DNA of 64,000 nt from a bacterium. Its GTDB lineage: Bacteria > CAYTYR01 > UBA6262 > DAOVJB01. The translations under genes were made by a program, and so were the position numbers. Below the pieces are notes generated by a model. The model did not search any database. It worked only from the letters and a program-made list of their open reading frames with translations, and was not told the DNA's origin. The stretch covers positions 6,276 to 70,275 of the forward strand of contig JBDRDD010000007.1 of the NCBI GenBank assembly GCA_043821115.1, read 5' to 3'. Of this stretch, positions 34,626 through 34,831 are shown in pieces (the stretch's first letter is position 1; every line of letters begins with the position of its first letter).

Positions 34626-34659
34626 TTGACAAAGGGGTTTTTTGAGGTATACTTATAAT
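34626..34659 (+). promoter_or_regulatory. Sigma70-type promoter driving the riboswitch leader
   Basis: TTGACA - 16 nt - TATACT followed by TATAAT (GGTATACTTATAAT 14-mer). Confidence 0.5.
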
Positions 34660-34699
34660 AGATAACCATGTTTTATAGTTAGTATATGGGTATTACTTC

Positions 34700-34812
34700 A
34701 AAAAAGGGCAAACCTTGAGAAATCAGGGGACGCAAAGCCACGGGCCCTGGTAATACGACAGAGGGAAGCCGGGTTGCTGAAGGAAATATTAGGCAATACG
34801 GCTTTATTTTTT
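34700..34812 (+). promoter_or_regulatory. Probable c-di-GMP-I (GEMM) riboswitch with terminator-type expression platform
   Basis: GGGCAAACC, then cttga-GAAA-tcagg hairpin (GNRA tetraloop), then GGACGCAAAGCC; downstream ccgggttgc...gcaatacgg stem followed by ctttattttttt. Confidence 0.7.
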
Positions 34813-34831
34813 TATATACAGGAGCGCGATA

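Follow-up and report, generated by a model that had tools for sequence, protein, structure and literature searches.

A 64-kb stretch of DNA (hereafter the window) from an uncultivated bacterium carries, upstream of a gene for a small TPR membrane protein and a gene for a giant protein, a leader that resembles a class I c-di-GMP (GEMM) riboswitch, yet whose best-scoring family model is that of a variant class with a proposed change of ligand. This raises the question of which molecule the leader would sense, and of what it would then do to the genes behind it. With a probability of about 0.72, we favor reading the leader as a canonical class I c-di-GMP riboswitch, an ON switch that controls the TPR/giant-protein operon via transcription termination. 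Sequence and folding show the family to which the aptamer belongs, its pocket bases, and that the aptamer and terminator folds exclude one another, together with their relative energies. Within this reading, we infer which ligand is bound, in which direction the switch acts, the toehold step described below, and the co-transcription of the two genes.

The leader runs, on the same strand as the gene, in the order promoter, aptamer (34696-34782), overlapping terminator (34765-34813), and start codon (34832). The following elements were found by direct reading:

34626 to 34653, plus strand: sigma-70-like promoter, with TTGACA at 34626-34631, a 16-nt spacer, and TATACT at 34648-34653
34706 to 34714, plus strand: leader motif GGGCAAACC
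34713 to 34728, plus strand: leader hairpin CCUUGA-GAAA-UCAGGG
34728 to 34739, plus strand: leader motif GGACGCAAAGCC
34740 to 34747, plus strand: G+C-rich segment ACGGGCCC
34820 to 34834, plus strand: ribosome-binding site AGGAG (34820-34824) and the ATG (34832-34834) of the first gene

The first-pass annotation had claimed a TTGACA-N16-TATACT promoter and a series of leader motifs, and all of these lie at the positions that it had given. The promoter matches 11 of the 12 consensus positions, and sites as good as this (at least 11/12) number only seven on both strands of the whole window; transcription would be expected to start at about 34660. The AGGAG stands 8 nt upstream of the ATG at 34832, and the segment from the ribosome-binding site to the start codon (34820-34834) is outside both the terminator and the aptamer. 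Between the expected start and the aptamer, a 5' hairpin at 34661-34694 is no better than its shuffles (z = -1.14), and no role is therefore assigned to it. Immediately before the leader, and directly after a PorV-like gene, there is also a weak hairpin at 34611-34639 (UUUGUC/GACAAA core, -9.1 kcal/mol, z = -1.9), which is followed by GGGGUUUUUU and whose 3' arm includes the -35 TTGACA of the riboswitch promoter. This hairpin may be the terminator of the upstream PorV-like gene.

When the whole window was searched with cmscan against 4227 Rfam families, a match to clan CL00126 was obtained at 34698-34782 on the plus strand (65.1 bits, E = 4e-13). This clan holds both RF03167 (c-di-GMP-I-GGC) and RF01051, and the best clan member is the one reported per locus; here, the top model was RF03167, whose score of 65.1 bits exceeds its gathering score of 59. 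In gathering mode, one more family of the clan exceeded its own threshold at the same place, and this second family should be RF01051 (gathering score 35). The earlier prediction of an RF01051 match at about 34700-34790 therefore stood with respect to a significant match and its location, but not with respect to the best model. A 33-nt core pattern occurred once in the window at up to three mismatches, and in none of 100 shuffles. Together with the Vc2-like G/A/C pocket described below, the clan match supports the class I identity that had been proposed, and on sequence grounds the leader element is a genuine and ordinary class I c-di-GMP riboswitch, a further example of a well-known kind.

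The aptamer and its two hairpins were delimited as follows:

34696 to 34782, plus strand: c-di-GMP-I aptamer, from the cmscan match at 34698-34782, the reading of P1, folding, and covariation
34708 to 34733, plus strand: first hairpin, from the cmscan alignment, folding, and covariation
34736 to 34775, plus strand: second hairpin (P2), from the cmscan alignment, folding, and covariation

For the isolated aptamer, the minimum-energy fold is the Rfam structure. P1 can be read as five continuous pairs (CUUCA at 34696-34700 with UGAAG at 34778-34782), in a register that is 1-2 nt off the Rfam model; transcripts with 3' ends at 34782-34800 show this register in their minimum-energy folds. The first hairpin consists of the outer pairs G34708-C34733 and C34709-G34732 and of a stem of 34713-34718 with 34723-34728, closed by a GAAA tetraloop at 34719-34722; its four inner pairs covary in relatives. 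In P2, the proximal pairs join 34736-34739 and 34741-34743 with 34769-34775, and the distal pairs join 34745-34748 with 34762-34765, the G/A at 34744/34766 being the window's only departure from the proposed pairs. Covariation was assessed in an alignment of 36 sequences, made up of the window and 35 short-P2 relatives, where 95.6% of the cells at the proposed pairs hold a standard pair. Compensatory cells numbered 83, against 18.9 in column shuffles, and none of 500 shuffles reached 83; structures slid by 1-3 columns gave pairing in only 22-46% of the cells.

In the type I architecture, the second hairpin carries a receptor that matches a GNRA tetraloop (PMC11218506). The receptor CUAAR...UAUG was sought in P2 of the window aptamer and is absent despite the GAAA loop, and 16 of the 48 GAAA-loop relatives likewise have no receptor-like motif. 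The absence of the receptor bears on the sub-type only, and not on class membership.

In Vc2, the ligand-contacting nucleotides are G20, A47, and C92, of which G20 touches one guanine of the ligand (PMC4744006, PMC5888326) and C92 forms a Watson-Crick pair with the second (PMC5888326). Their equivalents in the window, taken from the cmscan alignment, are:

34707, plus strand: G, equivalent of Vc2 G20, at model position 10
34734, plus strand: A, equivalent of Vc2 A47
34777, plus strand: C, equivalent of Vc2 C92, in the unpaired GC before the P1 3' strand and also at the loop-proximal end of the terminator stem

The pocket bases G34707/A34734/C34777 are G/A/C, as in Vc2, and in the same alignment C34731 and G34768 sit, unpaired, at the positions equivalent to C44 and G83, which in this class form a conserved inter-helical pair. 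Besides these bases, the window shares with Vc2 (Vibrio cholerae, RF01051) a two-hairpin aptamer closed by P1 and the core motifs GGCAAACC...GNRA...GGGACGCAAAGCC. It differs from Vc2 in its short P2 without a tetraloop receptor, in an expression platform that is a directly overlapping intrinsic terminator, and in its uncultivated host.

The RF03167 label nevertheless suggests that the leader could belong to the c-di-GMP-I-GGC variant class, for which a changed ligand has been proposed, and could sense something other than c-di-GMP. RF03167 is, after all, the best family for this locus, with a score above its gathering score, and the short receptor-less P2 of the window fits the RF03167 consensus. 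The name "GGC" itself, reportedly due to Weinberg et al. in 2017, is said to denote positions 20/47/92. The RF03167 consensus, GACGCGAAgCc against GACGCAAAGCC in the window, agrees with this meaning, as it has a conserved G at the A47 position; the window, however, has an A there, and the distinguishing G after GACGC is missing. To this can be added the behavior of other aptamers on the same models. A core pattern, GGCAAACC-N4-GNRA-N4-GGGACGC-R-AAGCCACGG, was scanned over 100,044 species genomes and found at 120 or more loci in many phyla; among the matches listed, 126 of 126 have A47, the window's own included. The label controls comprised loci L010-L119 and L121-L127. For A47, 20 loci from other phyla gave 21 aptamers by cmscan; RF03167 was the best model for 15 of them (60-76 bits) and RF01051 for the other six. 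All 15 RF03167 winners have a short P2, as do two of the RF01051 winners (L088 and L097, at 56-59 bits); in the other four (L112 twice, L018, L105), P2 is long and contains the tetraloop receptor CUAAG...UAUG. The G47 form of the core pattern was rare, at only seven loci in 241 million metagenome records, and these true G47 aptamers scored 70-76.5 bits on RF03167, not above the A47 sequences, with three of the seven best on RF01051. Models of clan CL00126 are indeed described as recognizing the same sequences (PMC9943018). Because both A47 and G47 controls split across RF03167 and RF01051, the RF03167 label is independent of position 47, and among A47 aptamers it mostly tracks P2 architecture. 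Judged by its pocket bases, the window aptamer is not a GGC variant, since the defining G47 is absent (A34734), and its pocket is canonical; we consider a GGC-type change of ligand very improbable here. We attach just as little weight to the broader idea that the short-P2 receptor-less aptamers under the GGC model, the window's with its A47 included, form a subgroup with altered or broadened ligand selectivity. If it were true, candidate ligands of the subgroup would be another cyclic or linear dinucleotide, and in this unstudied, Elusimicrobiota-related lineage the leader would couple an orphan operon for a giant exoprotein to a non-c-di-GMP signal. The c-AMP-GMP (3',3'-cGAMP) riboswitch known as GEMM-Ib, or an aptamer that accepts several cyclic dinucleotides, would likewise have the same fold and fall in the same clan. 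Most GEMM-Ib members have an A at the G20 position. Rare c-di-GMP-I variants have switched to c-AMP-GMP (PMC7266159, PMC9481103), and such variants are usually changed at the G20-equivalent position, which touches the ligand's G or A (PMC9481103). In the window this position is G34707, as in Vc2, and the window GGDEF protein has an ordinary GGEEF motif. Since the G at position 20 is kept, the aptamer does not appear from its sequence to be a c-AMP-GMP variant, and we give recognition of c-AMP-GMP, or of several cyclic dinucleotides, very little credence.

The comparison of labels has a consequence for annotation in general. Best-model picking in CL00126 labels many aptamers with a G/A/C pocket "GGC variant", and the A47 position should be checked behind such labels before an altered ligand specificity is claimed. 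Automated GGC-variant annotations are unreliable, because 15 of 21 A47 aptamers were labeled GGC and three of seven G47 aptamers were labeled plain c-di-GMP-I. One of the control loci, L123 (metagenome contig Ga0209515_10000418), carries at 2523-9021 six c-di-GMP-I-type aptamers within ~6.5 kb, on both strands. One of the six has G at the A47 position, and five of the six read GGGCGC where the canonical core is GGACGC, so that a G replaces the conserved A before C44.

Returning to the canonical c-di-GMP riboswitch, the next question is how its aptamer would be coupled to gene expression. Two further elements of the leader are relevant here:

34765 to 34813, plus strand: intrinsic terminator, predicted by folding, with a stem of 34765-34778 with 34792-34805, then A34806 and U7 at 34807-34813
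34690 to 34696, plus strand: GUAUUAC element, perfectly complementary to GUAAUAC of the P2 loop (34751-34757)

The terminator stem has 13 pairs and one G/A mismatch (34772/34798), and the hairpin has a folding energy of -16.9 kcal/mol (z = -3.97) that none of 200 shuffles equaled. With a stable hairpin followed by a U-run, 34765-34813 is predicted to be an intrinsic terminator. A simple terminator scan, which admitted loops of 3-8 nt and no internal mismatch, did not pick it up, its loop exceeding 8 nt, and it was folding that detected it. The whole 5' arm (34765-34778) lies inside the aptamer, where it spans the 3' strand of distal and proximal P2, the G83 equivalent, G34776-C34777, and the first nucleotide of the P1 3' strand; the pair list of the fold includes C34777-G34793. 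Because the 5' arm is wholly aptamer sequence, the aptamer and terminator folds are mutually exclusive, and the overlap of a terminator with the 3' side of the aptamer, which had been noted in the first-pass annotation, is borne out by folding. Over 34690-34815, the terminator state has an energy of -38.4 kcal/mol, against -30.9 kcal/mol with the aptamer enforced. As the transcript grows, the minimum-energy fold is the aptamer while the 3' end is at 34782-34800, and the terminator from 34805. The terminator fold also pairs GGGC (34706-34709) with GCCC (34744-34747), which forms an alternative helix together with GUAUUAC/GUAAUAC. A 7-nt complement of that length arose in 106 of 5000 shuffles (~2%), and a part for GUAUUAC/GUAAUAC in the switch is suggestive only.

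These folds lead us to propose the following sequence of events. Transcription would begin from the promoter at 34626-34653, and the aptamer (34696-34782) would be finished ~10 nt before synthesis of the terminator's 3' arm. In the ligand-free RNA, G34776 and C34777 of the junction would be unpaired and could serve as a toehold for the incoming 3' arm at 34792-34805 (G34793, C34794). The 3' arm would then displace the 3' strand of P2, forming the terminator with its U7, and transcripts would end at about 34808-34813; the freed 5' half of the aptamer would re-pair through GUAUUAC/GUAAUAC and GGGC/GCCC. With c-di-GMP bound, C34777 would pair with the ligand, G34707 and A34734 would contact it, and P1 and P2 would be locked. 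The terminator could then not nucleate on the ligand-locked aptamer, and RNA polymerase would read into the two genes. From completion of the aptamer to completion of the terminator there are ~23 nt, so control would be kinetic, and ligand binding would have to be fast or assisted by pausing. Given the affinities of Vc2, binding of a nanomolar-to-picomolar ligand would supply enough energy to cover the gap of 7.5 kcal/mol between the two states.

The direction of the switch is not set by the aptamer alone, and c-di-GMP might instead promote termination or block translation. Class I c-di-GMP switches are known as both ON and OFF, Cd1 of C. difficile being an OFF switch. In this leader, however, there is no separate anti-terminator, and the 5' arm of the terminator is all aptamer, so that a stabilized aptamer can only prevent the terminator; nor is the ribosome-binding site (34820-34824) part of either structure. 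An OFF switch thus seems quite unlikely to us. The ON direction is also the one that Tang et al. reportedly described in 2016 for Bc2, which is said to act through a terminator. Bc2 lies upstream of cap, a collagen-adhesion gene of Bacillus thuringiensis, and shares a class I aptamer with the window; it belongs to another phylum, and the window cargo is a TPR membrane protein and a GH113-like giant protein rather than an adhesin. As the leader of a surface-protein gene, Bc2 has been used as a c-di-GMP reporter (PMC11218506). The presence of a good aptamer does not by itself guarantee a response: Bc1, a predicted c-di-GMP-I riboswitch with a conserved pocket, showed no response to c-di-GMP in vivo (PMC11218506), and Vc1 binds weakly despite conserved contacts (PMC4744006). 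The window aptamer could similarly be a non-responsive relic, its leader being a constitutive attenuator or regulated by a protein, and the one G/A mismatch in P2 and the lack of a tetraloop receptor would fit such a history. Against this, the conserved core nucleotides are all intact, the score is within the range of aptamers from cultured genomes, and an exact overlap of aptamer and terminator is not expected to survive decay, which makes a relic unlikely.

If the leader is the ON switch that we favor, its targets would be the genes that follow it, and these are arranged as follows:

34832 to 35377, plus strand: 181-aa TPR-repeat protein with one transmembrane helix at its N-terminus, by domain search
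35403 to 39308, plus strand: 1301-aa giant protein, comprising an N-terminus that resembles a signal peptide, a TIM-barrel region similar to GH113, and a PKD-like domain
39342 to 39382, plus strand: perfect 16-bp hairpin after the giant gene (z = -4.9 for 39300-39420)

The giant gene starts at the ATG at 35403, 25 nt after the TPR gene and behind a ribosome-binding site GGTGGAG, and the two genes would be co-transcribed. In Pfam, the giant protein matches GH113 at 7.4e-14 and PKD weakly, and it has a weak match to the GH113 mannanases 4cd6 and 3civ (E ~2e-6). It is identical to the NCBI MAG protein ABH868_02040. Among 5.8 billion proteins, the TPR protein had no homologues besides itself, and the giant protein had no orthologues and one distant homologue at 27% identity. 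Exact-protein look-ups with the TPR protein, the giant protein, and this distant homologue returned no contigs, and the databases held no orthologous operon whose leader could be set beside this one. The 16-bp hairpin is likely the end of the operon; after it come another TTGACA and then an rRNA operon (16S from 39680). Because the hairpin closes the operon before the rRNA operon, the regulon at this locus would comprise two genes, those of the TPR membrane protein and the giant protein. The tie of c-di-GMP to this orphan operon hints at a cell-surface or matrix role of the operon, and a riboswitch-controlled surface or secreted protein is a classic context of the GEMM motif (PMC7266159). The locus would also add one more c-di-GMP-I riboswitch, in a poorly sampled uncultivated lineage.

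A possible source of the presumed ligand is encoded nearby. Two GGDEF proteins had been reported in the window, and both are there, as REC-GAF-GGDEF proteins upstream of the riboswitch. The one at 24388-25878, 9 kb upstream of the riboswitch, has an intact GGEEF motif. The other, at 19152-20576, has a degenerate EGGCF at the motif position, against GG(D/E)EF; to judge from this motif, it is probably catalytically inactive and not a cyclase, and it may serve as a receptor for c-di-GMP or as an adaptor. The GGEEF response regulator is directly preceded by two adjacent ORFs, one with HAMP and HATPase_c domains (21881-23353) and one with HAMP and HisKA domains (23373-24398), an arrangement that resembles a sensor kinase divided, or duplicated, into two halves.

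With respect to the host, Elusimicrobiota are the named organisms whose GltX is most similar to that of the window (~55-57% identity), other relatives being at 71-77%. Several other features of the window were noted in passing. Two similar gene pairs, at 31265-34612 and 47395-50506, each consist of a large FlgD-Ig and Por_Secre_tail protein followed by a PorV/PorQ-family outer-membrane protein, Por_Secre_tail being the C-terminal sorting domain of the T9SS. The second gene of the first pair (33623-34612) matches PorV/PorQ-family NF033709 at 201 bits, and this pair ends just upstream of the riboswitch promoter. A flavoprotein (CoaC-like, 46143-46694) and a DFP protein (CoaB-like, 46793-47335) are encoded by separate ORFs ~100 nt apart. 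These two domains are usually fused in CoaBC, and their separation may reflect gene splitting, a frameshift, or an error of assembly. The 16S rRNA (39680-41275) is 1596 nt long, against 1533 positions in the model, with a ~40-nt insertion near model position 80, and the 23S rRNA (41796-44851) has several insertions relative to the bacterial model.
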